Virus record (IMG/VR): IMGVR_UViG_3300031414_000008
Span: 1 to 64,000 of that record
Reading direction: 5' to 3' (one strand)
Source: a virus
DNA: 64,000 bases
The number at the start of each line of letters is the position of its first letter. Position 1 is the stretch's first letter. The notes beneath the pieces are model-generated. The model saw only the letters and a list, made by a program, of their open reading frames with translations. It was not told the DNA's origin and made no database searches. The position numbers and the translations under genes are program-made. This document shows, piece by piece, positions 11,301 through 63,375 of this stretch.

Positions 11301-12320
11301 GCTACCTTTTTCGACGTGCAGTGTGATGTTGCGACGCACACCGATCCCGCCTTCACCCTTAGAGGATTTGTCGGTGGACAGCTGCTTCTTCGCGTAGTCG
11401 ACGGCCTTCTGGAGACCGAAATCGTGCTCCACGAGGTTCGCAACCCACTCGTCTTCGTTCTCGACCGGATCTTCCAGGCCAAGCTTGCCCGCCCACAGCA
11501 TGTCGTAACGCAGGATCGCGACCAACCCGTTCTTCAGAGCGTGATCACCCCCGGCGTAGTGAGCCTTGCCGCGGACCGTCTTGGTCTCACCGTCTGGAAG
11601 CCAGTTCGGGTTACCGATAGCGGTACGGTAATCCGCCAGGTCCCAGATGATGTACTCGGCGCCACCGATGCCGGTACGACGATGATAACCCTTGGTCACT
11701 GCCAGTGTGCCCGCAGTCAGCGTCGTTGAGGCCATCATGTCAGCGACGGTGTCGAAGGTCAGCGTTGATGGGCGTGCCACGGCGCTTTGAACGCCGAGGT
11801 AATCGACGATGGCTTGAGGTGTGGTCTTGGTCAGAAGCGTACGGCCTGTCGGGGTGATCGTGGTCACGCCAGCAGTCTGTGGCCCTGTGAAGTACGGGAA
11901 GGTGTCGGCCTTCGGAACAACCTGAGAGAGTGCCGTCAGGGTTGACGACCACGGTTGTGCCCCGGCGCTTGGCAGGTCGGTCACGATTCCAGAGATACGA
12001 ACGGTATAGTCCAGAGAAGGGTTAAGGATCCATGCAATCGTCGAAACAGTCAGAGAGGTGCGAGGATCAGCGTAGAAGCGATCACTCTGTTGTAAACGGC
12101 CGCCGTCGAACTCAATGGTGATATCCGCGGTGATCAAGTAGTAATAGATCGCGATCTCTTCAACGAGGTTGACCCCGAAGAGATCGAAAGGTGCTTGCTT
12201 TCGTTGTTCTACAGAACCAAAAAAGTAGACATCCGGAAGCGACAGGGTCTGCCCCGCCCGATAAGTCGTCTGGCCAATCTTCTGGTCTGAGTTAAACGTT
12301 AATTTGATAGTGCTGACCAC
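8358..12320 (-). CDS. Tailspike/depolymerase-like fibre protein
   Basis: 1320 aa; shared N-terminal module; FDTVADM...TKGY...GIGGAEY tailspike-like segment; GLQKAVDYA...KGSYVLTKTCWVPANVYLCG resembles the start of a pectate-lyase-like beta-helix; three C-terminal beta-sandwich-like modules. Confidence 0.7.
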   Translation of the reverse strand: MVSTIKLTFNSDQKIGQTTYRAGQTLSLPDVYFFGSVEQRKQAPFDLFGVNLVEEIAIYYYLITADITIEFDGGRLQQSDRFYADPRTSLTVSTIAWILNPSLDYTVRISGIVTDLPSAGAQPWSSTLTALSQVVPKADTFPYFTGPQTAGVTTITPTGRTLLTKTTPQAIVDYLGVQSAVARPSTLTFDTVADMMASTTLTAGTLAVTKGYHRRTGIGGAEYIIWDLADYRTAIGNPNWLPDGETKTVRGKAHYAGGDHALKNGLVAILRYDMLWAGKLGLEDPVENEDEWVANLVEHDFGLQKAVDYAKKQLSTDKSSKGEGGIGVRRNITLHVEKGSYVLTKTCWVPANVYLCGGETWGNGGRDVDFIPLKPHLGGNLGGFIRGYMFIFNGNRNLASLPADIPPGSTPAETIYIAAYVGGWSGINLNNYETDYGKKPDGSIDWYAPNYLKGIKGAMVFGGGIFYCSSGNRMTIMYHRPGVDWLDYYTDGWQIFDYKANTPFENEEYQLDFNGSGDVIRVEQIQFPVNHPPKDKSEPWPDGEYLNGVVKGIRLHNWASWNIQPPGQGGSNEDVSYVGAGMQISRVINGAIAIYGYDQVSIDACHFEFGQVNLYSGSATITNSYFSKITGARYNSINCFTGPYGGFGAQLTLDSCQFHRGFDGAHMPVEDGYYDLVTNNNYTVTIRNSYQGWNTASTNNPVGLTVGYAEGNEGDPISPLPGWERWSAYLSDDAKIVRGKLVPQERIVSWNGLEGVQDVYCTKVASPLCWDLETGIDLYYYCQYLADVGDDTVAPDFIPLGKNQRERFVLDAQGNPTTERFEAHVFLKNPEMITVGSNDPYMTWYRPIPVFYGENETPDTGTLRLYRGRNPYQYTEYVDLPMMSRTGADDYGTTCFGRKWKPNPMPIDTTADLKVRKRNVLPVRGMENTNYRLHIRAGRPLAEPIDLGNDFYGRPEKQYFGTGGWEIDKSVEIIRASNKAVNAAVEGVQDSITIYDRPFEADVYVALGVTGSLSWDGVTKRVYKKGQRATIVRTKDTLAEGETKANKALWLEVRDENENLTFNYNIGPGEIITAIYDEKDVLVGGKYVTKGEWIVVNHAPAADIPAPYLYIEAEGDGYYNLMPKGVVETVSIWNKTNTEDVYSAVHTYDPPGCRLRITRGPAQTGPFYLLVQNEEYENVQTIAINQTNSTITFIKKESGWEMEGYTTDKDVFYGDCGTEQYKNLTPPVGMKRAYFTFTQPLPWGDTGVHRLTHEDSTVPVPAGTFCKLYWAKTATLASGGMVIRESNDAGDIDLVTLTAPGQSAEFLYDGTHWHVVGGYN

Positions 12321-22214: not shown

Positions 22215-22221
22215 TATTTTA
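22215..22221 (-). promoter_or_regulatory. TAAAATA late-type motif
   Basis: 26 nt upstream of ATG 22188, at the head of the head-gene block. Confidence 0.6.
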
Positions 22222-25481: not shown

Positions 25482-25497
25482 TATTTTAGGGTATAAG
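25482..25497. promoter_or_regulatory. Back-to-back promoter element TATTTTA-G-GGTATAAG
   Basis: At a divergent junction; same spacing at 27307 and 54558. Confidence 0.7.
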
Positions 25498-36608: not shown

Positions 36609-36841
36609 GCATCCTGAACGCCCTGAAACAGAATGAAACCCGAACGCTGGCCACTGTTGCGATCACCGTCGCGGCGGCCGCGGCTGTCGGCTGTACGGTC
36701 ATGGCTGTGCGTCAAGACCGCCTGAACCGTCGCATGAATGATCTCGAGAAGTTGGCGAACCTGAATGCAGACGTAACCCTGAACCTGACGCACGTCGTGG
36801 GAAAGCTCTCAAGCACCACCGCTGAGAATCCAATAACGTAA
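36605..36841 (+). CDS. Small single-TM protein (LLxxLKQ family)
   Basis: 78 aa, ATGA overlap; MSILNALKQ...VAITVAAAAAVGCTVMAV RQDR...NDLEKL. Confidence 0.75.
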   Translation: MSILNALKQNETRTLATVAITVAAAAAVGCTVMAVRQDRLNRRMNDLEKLANLNADVTLNLTHVVGKLSSTTAENPIT

Positions 36842-36887: not shown

Positions 36888-37019
36888 ATGAATACCTCGA
36901 AGTTCATCCGCTTTGCCCGCACTGCAGCCGCAGTTGCACTGACCGCAGCAGCTATCAACCAGATTGCTCTGGAAGTCAAACGTCGCAGTAAAGAGAAGGT
37001 TGTAACGGAAGTCCAATAA
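36888..37019 (+). CDS. Small Ala-rich hydrophobic protein (43 aa)
   Basis: AAGGA RBS; MNTSKFIRFARTAAAVALTAAAINQIALEVKRRSKEKVVTEVQ. Confidence 0.65.
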   Translation: MNTSKFIRFARTAAAVALTAAAINQIALEVKRRSKEKVVTEVQ

Positions 37020-37033
37020 CAGAAAGGGATTCC

Positions 37034-39160: not shown

Positions 39161-41074
39161 ATGCAACTAGCTTTTACTCCGGACAGGAGGAACGTTCTGT
39201 TCGTCCCCGAGACGACGGCTGAGGATACCATCCTTACAGCCTTCCCCGCACTGTATAAGGTACGCGGCGAGCGCTTTGCCCCGGCGTTCCCTAGTATTTT
39301 ACAGAACATCGTCACGCGTTTGAAGAAGAAGATCAAGACGATCACGACCAAAGAGAAGGACATCGTTGATCTCCTGAAGCGGGAGCCGACGCTTCTCCCT
39401 ATCCCGTCAGCCTTTAAGTATTTCACCACTCCGCTCGAGCATCAAGAGCTCGCCCTCCGATTTCTCTATACGCGAGGCGGCGGCGGTCTACTGCTGGACC
39501 CAGGCCTGGGGAAAACGAAGGTCGTCCTCGATTACATCGCACTAATGGGCTTTGAGAAGTCACTGATCGTGTGTCCAGTGGCCCTGCGTGACGTGTGGAT
39601 CGATGAGGTTCAGACGCACCGTCCGGACAAGACGATTCACGTCATGGAGTCCACTAACTGGGACTCGCTCATGGTCTCTGCCAAGCAGCGTGCGAAGAAA
39701 TGGGAAGAGGCTCTTGAGCGTGCAGCCGAGGGTTCTGACGGGTGGAAGAAAGCCCGCTCGAACTTGATGACTGCTGAACGTGAGATCAAGAAGATCCCGG
39801 CGTTGAAGCAGAAAGACTTGGACGCAGCCGCAGCGGCGGACATCATCGTGATTAACTATAACAAGGCCACGATCAATAAGGACCTGGCGTCTCACCAGAT
39901 TGCCACCGGTGTCGACTTCCTGACGAAGCACTTCAAGATCGACTTCGTGGCCCTGGATGAAGCCCTGATCAAGGCTCACGACACGGCCCGTACCCGTGAC
40001 CTCCTGAAGCTTGCGTCGGTGGTGCCGTACCGTGTTATCATGTCCGGAACGCTCATCAACAACACCGCCCTCGATGCCTTCGCCCCGATTCGCTTCCTCC
40101 AGCCGGCGCTGACCGGAATGGCGTACGGGAAGTTCGACCAGCACTACGGCATCAAGATCAAGCCGCGGGGCAAGACCTTCTCGGTGACGATCGGCGTGTC
40201 CAAGGCGAACATGCAGGAGATCCGTGAGATTCTCGAGGCGTGTTCGATCGTCATGCGTAAGGAAGACTGGCTGAAGCTTCCGGATAAGCACTTCCACGAG
40301 GTCCGCTTCGAACTCTCCGAGATTCAGAAAGCCATGTACTCCGGGCTCGTCTCAAACTACGCCTACGCTCTGCCTTCCGGTGAAGTGGTGCAGGTCGACA
40401 ACGGTCTGGGGCTGCTCTCGAAGGTCCAGCAGATCGCCAACGGCTTCCTTTACTATAAGGAACAGTCGCAGGATCCGCTGGATATCCTGTTCGGGGCCGA
40501 AAAAGAGGACTCGCCCCGCCAGACCTTCTTCTTCGAGGAACAACCGAAGCTGAATGCTCTGGGCGACCTGATGGACGGACCGATTAAAGGCCGCAAGTTC
40601 ATCCTCTGGTATAACTGCCAGGCTGAACACGAACTCGTCACCAAGTTCCTTGATAGCCGTAGAATCAAGCACGTCTCTGTCCGCGGCGGTACCAAGAACA
40701 CCGGTGCCATCGTCCGACAGTTCAACACCGACCCGTCGATCTCTGTGATGATCTGCCAAGCCAAGGCGGTGAACTATGGTATCACGGTGCTCGGCCGCGA
40801 CCCGGAGCAGCTTGAAAGCATCGATGAGGTGCTGCCGGAATTCTCCACCCGCGTCTACACACACGTCTTCTACTCACTGAACTACTCGCTCGAGGTCTTC
40901 CTTCAGCAGCAGGACCGTTCTCACCGTATCGGTCAGACCCATGACGTCGACTACTTCATCCTCTTGGGTGAATGTGCGGCCGAAACCCAGGTCTACGAAG
41001 CGATGCAGGCGAAGATGGTCATTCGTGAGTCCGTACTCGTGGACTTTTCGAAAAGGCTCAAACCACTGGTATAA
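39161..41074 (+). CDS. SNF2-family helicase
   Basis: LLLDPGLGKT, LDEA, IMSGTLINN, QQQDRSHRIGQ. Confidence 0.9.
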   Translation: MQLAFTPDRRNVLFVPETTAEDTILTAFPALYKVRGERFAPAFPSILQNIVTRLKKKIKTITTKEKDIVDLLKREPTLLPIPSAFKYFTTPLEHQELALRFLYTRGGGGLLLDPGLGKTKVVLDYIALMGFEKSLIVCPVALRDVWIDEVQTHRPDKTIHVMESTNWDSLMVSAKQRAKKWEEALERAAEGSDGWKKARSNLMTAEREIKKIPALKQKDLDAAAAADIIVINYNKATINKDLASHQIATGVDFLTKHFKIDFVALDEALIKAHDTARTRDLLKLASVVPYRVIMSGTLINNTALDAFAPIRFLQPALTGMAYGKFDQHYGIKIKPRGKTFSVTIGVSKANMQEIREILEACSIVMRKEDWLKLPDKHFHEVRFELSEIQKAMYSGLVSNYAYALPSGEVVQVDNGLGLLSKVQQIANGFLYYKEQSQDPLDILFGAEKEDSPRQTFFFEEQPKLNALGDLMDGPIKGRKFILWYNCQAEHELVTKFLDSRRIKHVSVRGGTKNTGAIVRQFNTDPSISVMICQAKAVNYGITVLGRDPEQLESIDEVLPEFSTRVYTHVFYSLNYSLEVFLQQQDRSHRIGQTHDVDYFILLGECAAETQVYEAMQAKMVIRESVLVDFSKRLKPLV

Positions 41075-41075
41075 G
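41068..41075 (+). promoter_or_regulatory. GGTATAAG phage promoter motif (contains the stop codon of the upstream gene)
   Basis: CTG GTA TAA G; precedes the DinG-like gene. Confidence 0.6.
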
Positions 41076-41107
41076 AAAAACGTGTGGATACACAATAGAG
41101 GTTGGTA

Positions 41108-42691
41108 ATGCTTAAGGATTTCTTCCCGTTCCCGACCATCAGAGAAACACAAGACCGAGTCCTGACGGCGATGGATCCTATCATCGCTCGTCATCGGCAC
41201 GTGATCGTGGAGATGCCCGTAGGCTCGGGGAAATCAGGTACAGGATTGGCGTTCGCCCGTCACGGCGGTTCGTCCTTTCTGCTGACTCCCCGGAAAGCTT
41301 TACAGGATCAATACTTTGATGACTTCTCGGAACACGTAGTAACACTCAAAGGCCGCTCGGCCTACCCCTGCGTCGACCCCAGTCGCTGGCATAACGCATT
41401 ACCAGTGCGTCAAATCCATGATGAAGTCCTCGAAGGTAACATATCACCCCGTTTCCTGACCGGAGCGCTGTGTTCTAACGGCCGTTGCACCAACTCAACG
41501 GAAGAAGATGGACGCCGCAACTATCGGGAAATGTGTGAACGCCTCGCTGGCATTCCGTGTCCGTACCAAACGGCGGTGGAAACTGCTCTCGAGGCGGATC
41601 ATGTGGTGTGTAACTTGCACTCCTTCATCTTCCAGACGACGTACGCCGGACGTTTCGAACCGCGTGCCCGTATGGTTGTCGATGAATGTCACGACATGGC
41701 AGGTATCATCCGTGATACGCTCGCCAAGACCGTGTTCTTCAAAGGCATCCAACTGGAAGAGTTACCTGAGATGCGTCGATGGGATATACCAGCGTGGCAG
41801 CGTTACTTCCGCCACCCTGCGAACCAACCCGTTGGCCGGTTTACCCGTGAGTTCAGAGACTATCTGAATGATCTGGAAGACCTAATCGAAGGTTTACCGG
41901 AGGCAATTTACGGAGCGTTTGCAGTCGATATCGAGAACAAAGACACTGGGACTTCCTTCAAGTTCCGTCAACTCGATATCTCCCGACAGGCACGGTCTAT
42001 GATCTTTGATCATGGTGACCGTGTGCTACTTATGTCGGGCACGATCTTCAGTAAGAATCTCTTTTGCTATGAAAATGGTCTGGACCCTGCGGAGACAGCC
42101 TTCCTTCGTGTCAATTCGACATTCCCTGTAGAGAACCGTTTGGTCATCCTCGACCAGCGGCCCGTGAACCTCAGTGCTGCAAACTGGGATAGCAACTTCG
42201 GACACCTGATTGATCGAATCCGGCGTGTCCTTAACCAGCACGACAGTGAAAAGGGGTTAATCCACGCACCGTCCTACGTGAAGGCAGCACAGATTGCCGA
42301 AGCGATTGGTGGGCGTGCGGTAACGCACTCCTCGGAAGATTTCTTGCCTACGCTTAATGGCTTCTTCCGCACCCGTGACAACTCGGTGTTCGTCTCTCCG
42401 ATTTGCCAGCAGGGCACTGACTTCAAGAACGACCGTGCACGTTTCCAGATCGTCACTACCGTCCCGTACTTAAACGTCGGCGACAACGTGGTAGCGAAGA
42501 TGATGGAGAGGAGTCCGGCATGGTACGACTTGAAAACCTTAGTGATATTCGCCCAGATGTTGGGGCGACCAGTTAGATCCGAAACGGACCACGGGGTGAC
42601 TTATCTGATGGATAATCGCTTCCCTGGATTCTTAAACCGTACACGCCAATGGATACCACATTGGTTAATGGACTCCTTTAGGGGATTTTGA
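41108..42691 (+). CDS. DinG/XPD-family helicase with candidate Fe-S cysteines
   Basis: MPVGSGKS, LKGRSAYPC...C...C...CPY, VVDECH, LLMSGTI, QGTDF, QMLGRPVRS. Confidence 0.9.
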   Translation: MLKDFFPFPTIRETQDRVLTAMDPIIARHRHVIVEMPVGSGKSGTGLAFARHGGSSFLLTPRKALQDQYFDDFSEHVVTLKGRSAYPCVDPSRWHNALPVRQIHDEVLEGNISPRFLTGALCSNGRCTNSTEEDGRRNYREMCERLAGIPCPYQTAVETALEADHVVCNLHSFIFQTTYAGRFEPRARMVVDECHDMAGIIRDTLAKTVFFKGIQLEELPEMRRWDIPAWQRYFRHPANQPVGRFTREFRDYLNDLEDLIEGLPEAIYGAFAVDIENKDTGTSFKFRQLDISRQARSMIFDHGDRVLLMSGTIFSKNLFCYENGLDPAETAFLRVNSTFPVENRLVILDQRPVNLSAANWDSNFGHLIDRIRRVLNQHDSEKGLIHAPSYVKAAQIAEAIGGRAVTHSSEDFLPTLNGFFRTRDNSVFVSPICQQGTDFKNDRARFQIVTTVPYLNVGDNVVAKMMERSPAWYDLKTLVIFAQMLGRPVRSETDHGVTYLMDNRFPGFLNRTRQWIPHWLMDSFRGF

Positions 42692-42727
42692 TGAATATTT
42701 GGAATTGGGGTTATTTCCCGAACGGAG

Positions 42728-43006
42728 ATGAAGATGAAGATTCACGTGAGAGAGTGTCAGCTGGAAATCGTTCCGGAGAGCGGGGCCGAGAGAAAGGATA
42801 TCGAGAAGAAAGCGAACCTTGCTATGCGTAAGTTCGACGTTTCTTCCCGTGTAGCCCGCATCCTGGCAGCTGCTGCAATCTGTACTGAGCTTCGCGACGA
42901 CATCTCAGTGGACTTGAAGCACGTCCATTACCAGGATAGGTCGTTCTCGATATACCCCAAAGGGTTGGATGGCGCCTCGTACCCAGAAGTAACCGTCTGC
43001 CCGTAA
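42728..43006 (+). CDS. Hypothetical protein
   Basis: 92 aa, GGAG RBS; 3' end overlaps the sigma gene in antisense. Confidence 0.55.
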   Translation: MKMKIHVRECQLEIVPESGAERKDIEKKANLAMRKFDVSSRVARILAAAAICTELRDDISVDLKHVHYQDRSFSIYPKGLDGASYPEVTVCP

Positions 43007-43788
43007 CCGTCTTCCATCGTATCACGCAGTAATTCTAAGCTCTTACTCAGGGAGCGCTTAACGTACGCCTGATTGTACTTAGGATCGGCCAGTGACTTAA
43101 CGATCTCCGCCGGCTTCATTTCGACCCCGTCGATGATGCCGTAGGCGAGCTTAACGATTTGGTTGTCCGGGTAGGGCAATGCGTCAATAGCCGTAAGAAG
43201 GCTATTATTTTCCAGTTCGTCCACCAACTGATCAATCGGGTGGACAATCGGCATGTCGGTATCCTTCATGTTGTCCAGATAGAAGGTGATGTACTGGGTC
43301 TTACTCAGTTCCCGCAGATCCTTGACGGACGCATTGGGGAACTCTTCACGGAGTTCAGCCAGCGTTGGCACCGAGTCTCGCTCCTCTACGAAGCGTTTGA
43401 TCTTGGTCGCTAATTGTTGTTTCTGAGCCGGCAGCGCCACTAAACGCCAGCGGGACATCTCTTTGAGTTGACGCTGCATTACCCACCATCCGGCGTATGT
43501 CAGTAAGCGTACGCCCGACTGGGGATCGAATTTGTCCAGACCAGCTAGAAGACCCTCGTTGCCAGCAGCGATCAGGTCTTCGAACTGTTCGACGTTGCCG
43601 CGGGAGTATTTCTTGGCACGCTTGAACACATACCGCAGGTTTGAGCAGATGAGAATATCACGAGCCCGTGCTTTAGCCGCCTTCGTTGATGTAGCAGAGA
43701 AGTAGACCTGCAGGTGTGCGTCTTCCTGTTCCTTCGTCAGAATCGGATAGCGCTCGCAGATTTCCTCGTAGTATTTTGTCAATCCCAT
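42928..43788 (-). CDS. Phage sigma70-family sigma factor
   Basis: Region 1.2-like YYEEICERYPILT.EQE; region 2 SNLRYVFKRAKKY...EDLIAAGNEGL..GLDKFDP.SGVRLLTYAGWW; diverged region 4; start ATG 43788 (AGGAG RBS). Confidence 0.92.
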   Translation of the reverse strand: MGLTKYYEEICERYPILTKEQEDAHLQVYFSATSTKAAKARARDILICSNLRYVFKRAKKYSRGNVEQFEDLIAAGNEGLLAGLDKFDPQSGVRLLTYAGWWVMQRQLKEMSRWRLVALPAQKQQLATKIKRFVEERDSVPTLAELREEFPNASVKDLRELSKTQYITFYLDNMKDTDMPIVHPIDQLVDELENNSLLTAIDALPYPDNQIVKLAYGIIDGVEMKPAEIVKSLADPKYNQAYVKRSLSKSLELLRDTMEDGYGQTVTSGYEAPSNPLGYIENDLSW

Positions 43789-43812
43789 TGTGTTCTCCTG
43801 GTTAGTCGAGGT

Positions 43813-43841
43813 ATAGTACCGTCCGTAGCCCGATAAGTCAA
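43813..43841 (-). promoter_or_regulatory. Host sigma70-type promoter for the phage sigma gene
   Basis: TTGACT (43841-43836)-N17-TACTAT (43818-43813). Confidence 0.75.
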
Positions 43842-43852
43842 TTGAGGACACC

Positions 43853-44044
43853 ATGATCAAGATCGACGTACTGAAGAAATCCAACGGACTGGTCACCCTC
43901 GTGATCCAGACCAACAACCCCACTCAGGACAAAGACAAACTGGACCTGATCGGGGCTGCCATCATGTCTACCGGCCAGAAACGCGGTGGGTTCAAATCCG
44001 AATCTCAGCTCGAAGTATCCGTGCTGGATTCCACAATCGCCTAA
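43853..44044 (+). CDS. Small hypothetical protein
   Basis: 63 aa, GAGG RBS. Confidence 0.65.
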   Translation: MIKIDVLKKSNGLVTLVIQTNNPTQDKDKLDLIGAAIMSTGQKRGGFKSESQLEVSVLDSTIA

Positions 44045-44049
44045 CGGAG

Positions 44050-44057
44050 GGTATAAC
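44050..44057 (+). promoter_or_regulatory. GGTATAAC promoter motif variant
   Basis: Upstream of the SSB gene. Confidence 0.55.
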
Positions 44058-44058
44058 T

Positions 44059-44220
44059 ATGATGGAGAAATCATCCCACATTTATTTATCCCCAAAGGAC
44101 CTTGCTGAGTACAAAGAAGGTCGAGTGTCTCAACGAATTCAGGACACTTGGGGCTTGACTTACGGTGAGCTTTCAGCGATAATTGAAGCTCACGAATACA
44201 CTTCTACAGAGGAAATCTAA
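44059..44220 (+). CDS. Small hypothetical protein (53 aa)
   Basis: GGAGG RBS, ATG 44059, stop abuts the SSB start. Confidence 0.45.
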   Translation: MMEKSSHIYLSPKDLAEYKEGRVSQRIQDTWGLTYGELSAIIEAHEYTSTEEI

Positions 44221-44907
44221 ATGTCAGCACTCGAACAACTCGCAGCTCTTGAACAACGCGTTATTATCGGCCCAGCACGTGGCGAATGGTTCCACCTGGC
44301 AGAGCCAGACACCAAATTCAAAGCAGAAGGTGAGTACAAAGTTACTCTGCGTCCAACCGCTGAGTACATGGCTCCGTTCTTCGACCAGATGAAACGTATT
44401 GCCGAGGCTGCCCTGCCTCTGTATCAGGAAATCGAAGACGAAGAAGCTAAGAAGAAAGGTAAGAAAGCCAAGCAGGTTAAGCTTTCTGACACCCAGCCGT
44501 GGCTGGACTGCGAAATGGAAGACGGTACTGTTACCGTTAAGCTGAAGACCGCAGCGACCTTCCTGAGCAAGAAAACCGGTGCCGTTGAAGAGAAAAACGT
44601 CCCAGTCGTTGACTCCTTCGGTAAGTACCTGGCCAAAGAGCAGATCGTTGCCCTGAAGATCGGTAACGGTACTGAACTGCGTGCGGTAGTGACCATCCGT
44701 CCTTACCACATGGTGACCAGCGGTGTTGGCATCAGCCTGCGTCTGGAGAAAGTCCAGATCGTTAAGCTGGTACAGTACGGCGGTAACGGCATGGACAACG
44801 AGTTCGGTGAGTTTGCAGGCGGCGAGTTCGCTGCTCCTGAAGCTCCAACCGAACAGCGTGACGGTGAGTTCACCGGTCAGTCCGAAGAAACAAACTACAC
44901 CGTATAA
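44221..44907 (+). CDS. Single-stranded DNA-binding protein, T7 gp2.5-like
   Basis: HLAEPDTKF...GEYKVTL, IGNGTEL, GVGISLRLEKVQIVKLVQYGG, acidic C-terminal tail. Confidence 0.8.
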   Translation: MSALEQLAALEQRVIIGPARGEWFHLAEPDTKFKAEGEYKVTLRPTAEYMAPFFDQMKRIAEAALPLYQEIEDEEAKKKGKKAKQVKLSDTQPWLDCEMEDGTVTVKLKTAATFLSKKTGAVEEKNVPVVDSFGKYLAKEQIVALKIGNGTELRAVVTIRPYHMVTSGVGISLRLEKVQIVKLVQYGGNGMDNEFGEFAGGEFAAPEAPTEQRDGEFTGQSEETNYTV

Positions 44908-44919
44908 GGTGTAGCACGA

Positions 44920-44944
44920 GGGCCCTTCGGGGCCCTTTTCTTTT
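44920..44944 (+). terminator. Rho-independent terminator
   Basis: GGGCCC-TTCG-GGGCCC-TTTTCTTTT. Confidence 0.85.
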
Positions 44945-63098: not shown

Positions 63099-63127
63099 TT
63101 GACACCCCTGCTCGATATCGTTATAGT
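63099..63127 (+). promoter_or_regulatory. Host sigma70-type promoter
   Basis: TTGACA (63099-63104)-N17-TATAGT (63122-63127). Confidence 0.8.
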
Positions 63128-63159
63128 AGCAACATCTTCCACTACTTAGGTATCGAGCA

Positions 63160-63375
63160 ATGAAAAAGTCCTCAGGAATGCAGTACGAAGTTCGTCCAGT
63201 AATGCCGAAAGGCAAAGACGGTGTGGCCAAGAAAGGTCGTTACGGCAAGAAGCCGGAAAGCCAGATCTACCACGCTCACTCACCGGACGCTGCCCTGAAG
63301 CAGGCGGTGGTCAAGGGATTCATCCCGAGCAACACCGTAATGCAGTACTACGAGGCAGTACCGACTCGTAAGTAA
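63160..63375 (+). CDS. Small basic hypothetical protein
   Basis: 71 aa, Lys-rich, between a sigma70 promoter and a terminator. Confidence 0.7.
   Translation: MKKSSGMQYEVRPVMPKGKDGVAKKGRYGKKPESQIYHAHSPDAALKQAVVKGFIPSNTVMQYYEAVPTRK

Follow-up and report, generated by a model that had tools for sequence, protein, structure and literature searches.

The gene for a sigma70-family factor in this phage is probably transcribed from a genuine sigma70-type promoter read by the host enzyme, and the motif facing it on the other strand is best understood as the promoter's −10 box read in mirror image, not as a promoter of the phage's own class. In the mechanism proposed here, transcription from TTGACT-17-TACTAT would begin the sigma mRNA near A43806. 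Most likely it would be the host sigma70 holoenzyme that reads this promoter, in which case the phage sigma would be made without any phage-specific transcription factor. The opposing GGTATAGT would give at most weak divergent sigma70-type initiation, the strong −35 element favouring the sigma direction. That a phage sigma gene has a host-type promoter in front of it is nothing new in kind, and this promoter is an ordinary, well-conserved one.

The window, meaning the whole stretch of 64,000 nucleotides analysed here, covers the first 64 kb of a virus record (IMGVR_UViG_3300031414_000008) that is 182,632 bp long and has direct terminal repeats. The virus DNA is 81.5% identical to that of Salmonella phage Arash, an 'orphan' myovirus for which there is no published promoter analysis. 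Among the phage's own genes are those for a two-chain RNA polymerase and for two sigma factors. A 1526-aa protein in the window fuses beta domains with the front half of beta' (Pfam); the second sigma gene, FliA-like, lies on the minus strand at genome positions 149800-150504. According to the Arash paper, RNA polymerase beta (Gp206), beta' (Gp216) and a sigma factor (Gp10) belong to the most abundant proteins in purified particles, and Gp196, the ortholog of the sigma studied here, is absent from that list of abundant particle proteins.

The true start of the sigma gene is ATG 43788, which is preceded by the Shine–Dalgarno sequence GGAG (43798-43795), and not the upstream GTG 43923. The resulting N-terminus, MGLTKYYE, aligns with the start of the ortholog in Vibrio phage D69. 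The longer, GTG-started frame, as in the Arash record, is very likely wrong, and it overlaps the conserved divergent gene. That record (L001, Arash 120,407-121,693) places the start of Gp196 59 codons too far upstream and lacks the divergent 63-aa gene as well as the convergent 92-aa gene. Arash Gp196 (OQ632216) is 93% identical to the sigma in the window, and the Arash intergenic region is the same except for two bases in the spacer and a single one immediately ahead of the divergent gene's ATG.

The protein is a complete sigma70-family factor, with a readily recognised region 2. Pfam Sigma70_r2 (PF04542) matches at 4.9e-10 (39.5 bits against a cut-off of 24), TIGR02937 scores 65 bits (cut-off 43) over residues 42-255, and SigA and RpoS chains match residues 40-232 at 1e-16 to 1e-14, the SigA alignment extending through region 4.1. 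The core-binding and −10-melting motif YAGWWV.Q is present, the canonical −10-reading residues are kept, and the segment (TYAGWWV.QRQ) is nearly unchanged in D69 at 42% overall identity. The helix of region 4.2, NQAYVKRSLSKS, differs in D69, and a Pfam region-4 search on this sigma gave no match even at E = 10. In addition, the positions presumed to correspond to the −35-contacting residues of the sigma70 region 4.2 helix are replaced (NQAYVKRSL). The contrast drawn in the initial annotation between a conserved region 2 and a diverged region 4.2 helix is therefore qualitatively borne out by Pfam, TIGR02937 and the D69 comparison.

Both hexamers of the sigma promoter, and the 17-nt spacer between them, can be read directly off the minus strand (Table 1). 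Their conservation was compared in 10 relatives, which have 75-96% sigma identity and represent about four independent lineages. All 12 hexamer columns are invariant, versus 4 of the 17 spacer columns (Fisher p = 6e-5). The −10 hexamer keeps the key bases T-12, A-11 and T-7 and sits within an invariant 9-mer, GTACTATAC (43819-43811); counted from the predicted start, the mRNA leader would be 18 nt long and contain the Shine–Dalgarno sequence. With a position-weighted sigma70 matrix built on base frequencies from the literature, the promoter ranks 11th among 365,210 genome positions. Near-consensus, as it had been described, here means nine of 12 consensus bases, which by a simple scan is not rarer than chance in the region, but all heavily weighted positions are kept. 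A mismatch count (at most 2 of 12) misses it, and the genome holds 21 such sites against 10 ± 3 expected. On footprint and matrix rank together the promoter looks real, and it exceeds chance because the hexamers are conserved in this way against a variable spacer. The footprint may have further contributions, as the −35 hexamer overlaps the leader of the divergent gene, a possible added constraint, and the invariant stretch that contains the −10 spans 9 bp and is symmetric, which exceeds the strict need of one promoter. An Rfam scan of 42600-44300 found no credible match. In the more distant D69, the sigma gene points the same way as the genes around it, and no clear sigma70-type promoter precedes it; the only candidate, an ambiguous TTGCAT-N19-TACAAT in an AT-rich gap, was rejected.

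Table 1. Features of the sigma locus and related promoter sites (window coordinates unless a genome is named).
Feature	Position	Strand	Remarks
Sigma-factor gene	42928..43788	minus	286 aa, sigma70-family regions 1.2 to 4; ortholog of Arash Gp196
−35 hexamer TTGACT	43836..43841	minus	5/6 consensus bases; 6/6 columns invariant in 10 relatives
Spacer, 17 nt	43819..43835	minus	4/17 columns invariant; length 17 in every relative
−10 hexamer TACTAT	43813..43818	minus	4/6 consensus bases; 6/6 columns invariant
Predicted +1 (A), 7 nt past −10	43806	minus	invariant in all relatives; position from standard spacing
GGTATAGT, mirror image of −10 box	43810..43817	plus	contains TATAGT 43812-43817; TTGTGT 18 nt upstream
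63-aa gene	43853..44044	plus	divergent from sigma gene; 63-70 aa in all relatives
92-aa gene	42728..43006	plus	last 79 nt overlap sigma 3' end on opposite strand
Phage-type promoter GGTATAAG	41068..41075	plus	before helicase gene; flank score +14 bits
Phage-type promoter GGTATAAC	44050..44057	plus	flank score +12.4 bits; predicted start = ATG 44062
First strong plus-strand terminator after 41068 promoter	44918..44937	plus	8-bp GC-rich stem and T tract
Lone opposite-strand GGTATAAG	genome 150801-150808; Arash 11588-11595; G001 53092; G002 96462; G003 161719	minus (genome)	

As had been stated, the window has two clear host-type promoters, of which this is one; the other, TTGACA-N17-TATAGT at 63099, shows a like footprint in four relatives. 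Within 63099-63160 that promoter is followed by an invariant leader, CATCTTCCAC, without an obvious ribosome-binding site, and by a small conserved gene near 63151. A further candidate on the plus strand, TTGACT-17-GATAAT (44155-44183), lies inside a 52-aa open reading frame, 38 nt before a T7-type SSB gene; its TTGAC and ATAAT are invariant in relatives, with promoter constraint inseparable from coding constraint. Elsewhere in the genome, sigma70-type members directly precede tRNA-Trp, tRNA(CUA) and tRNA-Val as well as a non-coding RNA, and the tRNA-Trp promoter (genome position 110288) has the same TACTAT hexamer. Judged by its sequence, the sigma promoter belongs to this small conserved −35/−10 class, which otherwise serves tRNAs, the non-coding RNA and a few small genes; in having such a promoter the sigma gene is unlike almost all other protein genes of the genome. 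Expression by the host RNA polymerase is therefore the simplest reading, and the claim that the host enzyme makes the phage sigma is plausible on the strength of this conserved promoter. As the phage encodes its own RNA polymerase, use of the host enzyme is nevertheless an assumption.

The class to which the opposing motif had been assigned is well defined. Its core, GGTATAA, occurs 14 times in the window against 2.7 expected, always on the plus strand; in the genome there are 41 plus-strand copies and one on the minus strand, and four relatives each have about 30 GGTATAAG on one strand versus 1 on the other. Aligned sites read tGGTATAAG with an A-rich stretch and T-G-T-A at positions 13-16; position 8 is G in 80% of sites and rarely C. 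Members sit 10-68 nt before their ATGs. The class had been called −10-only, which is not quite right, since a weak but significant tCAATAA-like element lies 15-21 nt upstream of the GGTATAAG core (2.6 bits versus a null of 0.57 ± 0.16). Examples of such an element (tCCAATAAC-like) are found at 36830-36838 and 37013-37021, and the phage-type promoters are thus not strictly −35-less. Sites with the exact core have a median flank score of +14 bits and a median downstream score near +10. The 201 one-mismatch sites in the genome average −17 bits, with none positive, and the class shows no sign of tolerating a core mismatch.

At the 44050 member of this class, transcription is predicted to start right at the conserved ATG (44062) of a 52-aa gene, and GGGTATAAC-N4-ATGGAGAAATC is invariant in relatives. 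Two phage-type promoters (44050-44064, and genome 150796-150808) carry an ATG at motif positions 12-14, where (G/A)TG is the consensus and the start is expected; at the 44050 promoter relatives keep only the second ATG (44062). This placement suggests leaderless mRNAs. The 52-aa protein matched nothing in PHROGs or Pfam.

Positions 43810-43817 of the plus strand do literally read GGTATAGT, 43 nt ahead of the 63-aa gene that starts at 43853, so that strand and position relative to the gene agree with the GGTATAAG class. As a meaningful variant of the phage motif, however, the site does not hold up. Its core is GGTATAG, with six of seven bases matching the exact GGTATAA; position 8 is T; the TAA..GTGTA downstream element is missing (downstream score −16.3 bits), as is an upstream element at the right distance (upstream score −9.0 bits). 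Its flank score of −25.3 bits places it 180th among the 201 one-mismatch sites. Four relatives (L014-L017) read AGTATAGT at this motif.

The likeness has a simpler source. TACTAT on the minus strand fixes ATAGTA on the plus strand, and the A at −6 adds one base to give TATAGT; three of the six matching core bases (ATA) are thus automatic from the opposite −10 hexamer, and the T comes from the A at −6. Most of the resemblance of GGTATAGT to the phage core is therefore automatic, and the site is the mirror of the −10 box, not a GGTATAAG-class promoter. The two boxes, TACTAT (43818-43813) and TATAGT (43812-43817), pair at positions 2 and 6, with A43813 and T43817 serving both. The divergent starts predicted from them, 43806 and 43824-43825, are 18 bp apart, and a plus-strand purine is conserved at 43825. 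TTGTGT-18-TATAGT ranks 103rd of 365,210 by the sigma70 matrix. Weak divergent sigma70-type initiation toward the 63-aa gene is possible.

Another plus-strand sequence over the spacer and −35, CCGATAAG at 43830..43837, was ruled out as a phage promoter in the window by three core mismatches and a flank score of −8.4 bits; two relatives (L012 and L013) read AGTATAAG there. In relative G001 (L011, G001 123225-123232) an exact GGTATAAG, within TTGACTTATACC, overlaps the sigma −35, 24 nt before the ATG of the small gene. Its flank score of −1.8 bits is borderline, against a background of −16 ± 7 and a true-site median of +14, and it may be a lineage-specific version of the overlapping promoter that the initial annotation had in mind.

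Besides the sigma70-type promoters and about 40 plus-strand GGTATAAG sites, the genome has a third class, about 10 minus-strand YTAAAATA before structural genes. TAAAATA occurs 10 times on the minus strand versus 3 on the plus strand. For YTAAAATA, late strand versus other, the counts are 8-11 versus 0-2 in four relatives and 17 versus 3 in D69. In the window, YTAAAATA occurs at 22221, 25488, 27313, 36367, 52700 and 54564, some 30 nt ahead of structural and polymerase operons on the minus strand. With its TAAAAT-type −10, this is apparently a T4-late-like, −10-only class. In the divergent gaps at 25490, 27315 and 54566, a plus-strand GGTATAAG abuts a minus-strand YTAAAATA back to back (CTTATACC-YTAAAATA), a fixed two-way module. 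Each of five Arash-like genomes also has a lone opposite-strand GGTATAAG, which is situated some 300 nt upstream of the FliA-like second sigma gene and directly precedes a gene of about 96 aa (Arash gp9).

On the question of which sigma reads which class there is the comparison with D69, where the early motif differs (GTTATAAGTAATATGTA, beginning GTTATAAG) and the second-sigma operon has CTAAAATA about 330 nt upstream, with no TATAAG motif in that upstream region. Both sigmas and both motif families exist in Arash-like phages and in D69, and any class assignment is thus only suggestive. On the D69, strand-bias and second-sigma comparisons plus the virion data, we lean slightly towards a scheme in which the sigma present in virions recognises the TATAAG class, leaving the late YTAAAATA class to the studied sigma. 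That the studied sigma reads the GGTATAA class is doubtful, because its region 2 is canonical and conserved to D69, as is YTAAAATA, and because the FliA-like sigma is the virion one. An SPO1-like order, with the studied sigma reading GGTATAAG, is possible. Under either scheme, occupancy feedback at 43810 lacks support.

The gap between the sigma gene and the 63-aa gene is 64 bp and contains the sigma promoter. Conservation in relatives and a pattern of substitutions relative to Arash that falls mostly at third codon positions (9/3/20 by codon position) indicate that the 63-aa gene is real; its product has no Pfam or PHROG match, and the gene has no promoter of the GGTATAAG class. On the other side, the 92-aa gene meets the sigma gene tail to tail. 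Both frames of this overlap (42928-43006) are kept in the relatives examined and no terminator lies between; a 90-92 aa frame with a like overlap is present in all five relatives examined, and the 92-aa protein matched nothing in PHROGs or Pfam. The nearest upstream source of plus-strand transcription is the GGTATAAG at 41068, from which transcription would cross the sigma gene antisense. No convincing terminator was found on either strand from 41100 to 44918, and a relaxed hairpin-plus-T-tract scan was also empty around the sigma gene. The sigma gene is thus embedded, in antisense orientation, in a plus-strand unit.

Several other readings of the locus can be weighed against these data. The initial annotation had proposed that GGTATAGT drives the 63-aa gene and that phage holoenzyme, when it occupies this site, makes the host-type −10 inaccessible and so turns off the sigma gene. 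The six matching core bases, the distance to the plus-strand ATG, within the class range, and the invariance of the 9-bp block that holds the motif speak for it. All one-mismatch sites have flank scores of 0 or below, though, this one among the lowest; the class G at position 8 and both flanking elements are missing, the first G is A in four relatives, and the match is mostly forced by the opposite-strand hexamer. As the site shares no class features apart from the six core bases and its position, the overlapping promoter with its occupancy feedback is unsupported and highly improbable. The same invariant block, longer than a −10 hexamer, might instead be an operator: GGTA-TAG-TACC (43810-43820) is partly palindromic and could bind, over the −10, a dimeric regulator from phage or host. 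The outer bases, 43820/43810, are G/C in the window; in L014-L017 they are A/T, which preserves the symmetry there, but L012 and L013 break it (A/C), two overlapping −10 boxes account for the same nine bases, and no similar block was noticed on inspection of some of the other class members. An operator is thus very unlikely.

A different question is who reads TTGACT-17-TACTAT. A phage holoenzyme, either phage beta/beta' or host core with a phage sigma, would be available in principle, as the phage encodes the polymerase and two sigmas and the studied one keeps canonical −10-reading residues. Against this, the presumed −35-contacting positions of region 4.2 are replaced (NQAYVKRSL), neither phage sigma has a Pfam region-4 match above threshold, and tRNA genes are served by members of this promoter class whose −35 boxes are a perfect TTGACA, a hallmark of host sigma70; we regard reading by a phage holoenzyme as improbable. 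More room is left for interference, in which, once phage-type promoters fire, polymerases from 41068 would run through the sigma gene and its promoter, switch that gene off and provide the transcript of the 63-aa gene by read-through. The conserved 79-nt convergent overlap leaves no room for a terminator, none that convinces exists on either strand up to 44918, the 63-aa gene has no phage-class promoter of its own, and one relative has an exact GGTATAAG over the −35. This support is purely architectural, however; Rho-dependent or other factor-dependent termination is invisible in sequence, and the arrangement is absent in D69. Interference of this kind, which is compatible with the host-read promoter preferred here, is a tentative suggestion with the weight of probability against it. 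A slightly less probable, stronger form would have the sigma gene wired for automatic shut-off by collision, as a lone minus-strand cistron lying antisense in an unterminated plus-strand unit that phage-type promoters drive, its place fixed by the conserved 79-nt convergent overlap. If true, once transcription passes from host-type to phage-type promoters, the sigma gene would be silenced or timed with no need of a repressor.

The wider interest of the host-read sigma promoter lies in the phage group to which this virus belongs, a group that carries a two-chain RNA polymerase of its own along with two sigma factors and for which no transcription map exists. Host-type promoters at the sigma gene, the tRNAs and one non-coding RNA, versus two phage classes elsewhere, give a testable outline of the infection programme, and this outline marks the step that would need the host enzyme.

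The layout of the locus resembles that of bidirectional sigma70 promoters. In E. coli, the 18-bp layout is the commonest of these, and a strong one-sided −35 suppresses the other direction (Warman et al., bioRxiv 10.1101/2020.01.31.928960; NAR 2026, PMC12825309). As in the E. coli and Salmonella examples, the sigma locus has overlapping opposite-strand −10 boxes that share bases, with positions 2 and 6 paired and predicted starts 18 bp apart; it likewise has genes on both sides, and the side with the strong −35 is expected to dominate. Unlike the published cases, the plus-strand −35 is poor here (TTGTGT, 18-nt spacer), the starts are only predicted, and the setting is a virulent phage with extra promoter classes.

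Two phage systems offer parallels for the sigma gene itself. In Bacillus phage SPO1, host sigmaA reads the early genes including gene 28, and gp28, then gp33/34, take over. Here, too, a phage sigma gene lies behind a host-type promoter. In outline, it is the host holoenzyme that sets the SPO1 sigma cascade, with its successive phage promoter classes, in motion (PMC13401047). Unlike SPO1, the phage studied here encodes a beta/beta' polymerase, which in Arash was detected in the particles with the other sigma. A second parallel is a phage-encoded sigma70-family factor that shifts transcription to −10-centred phage promoters, as with gp36 of Escherichia phage phiEco32. This gp36 is ECF-like, whereas the studied sigma is longer and group-2/3-like, with regions 1.2 to 4. 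In phiEco32, gp36 is the sigma70-family factor for middle and late promoters (PMC12276001).
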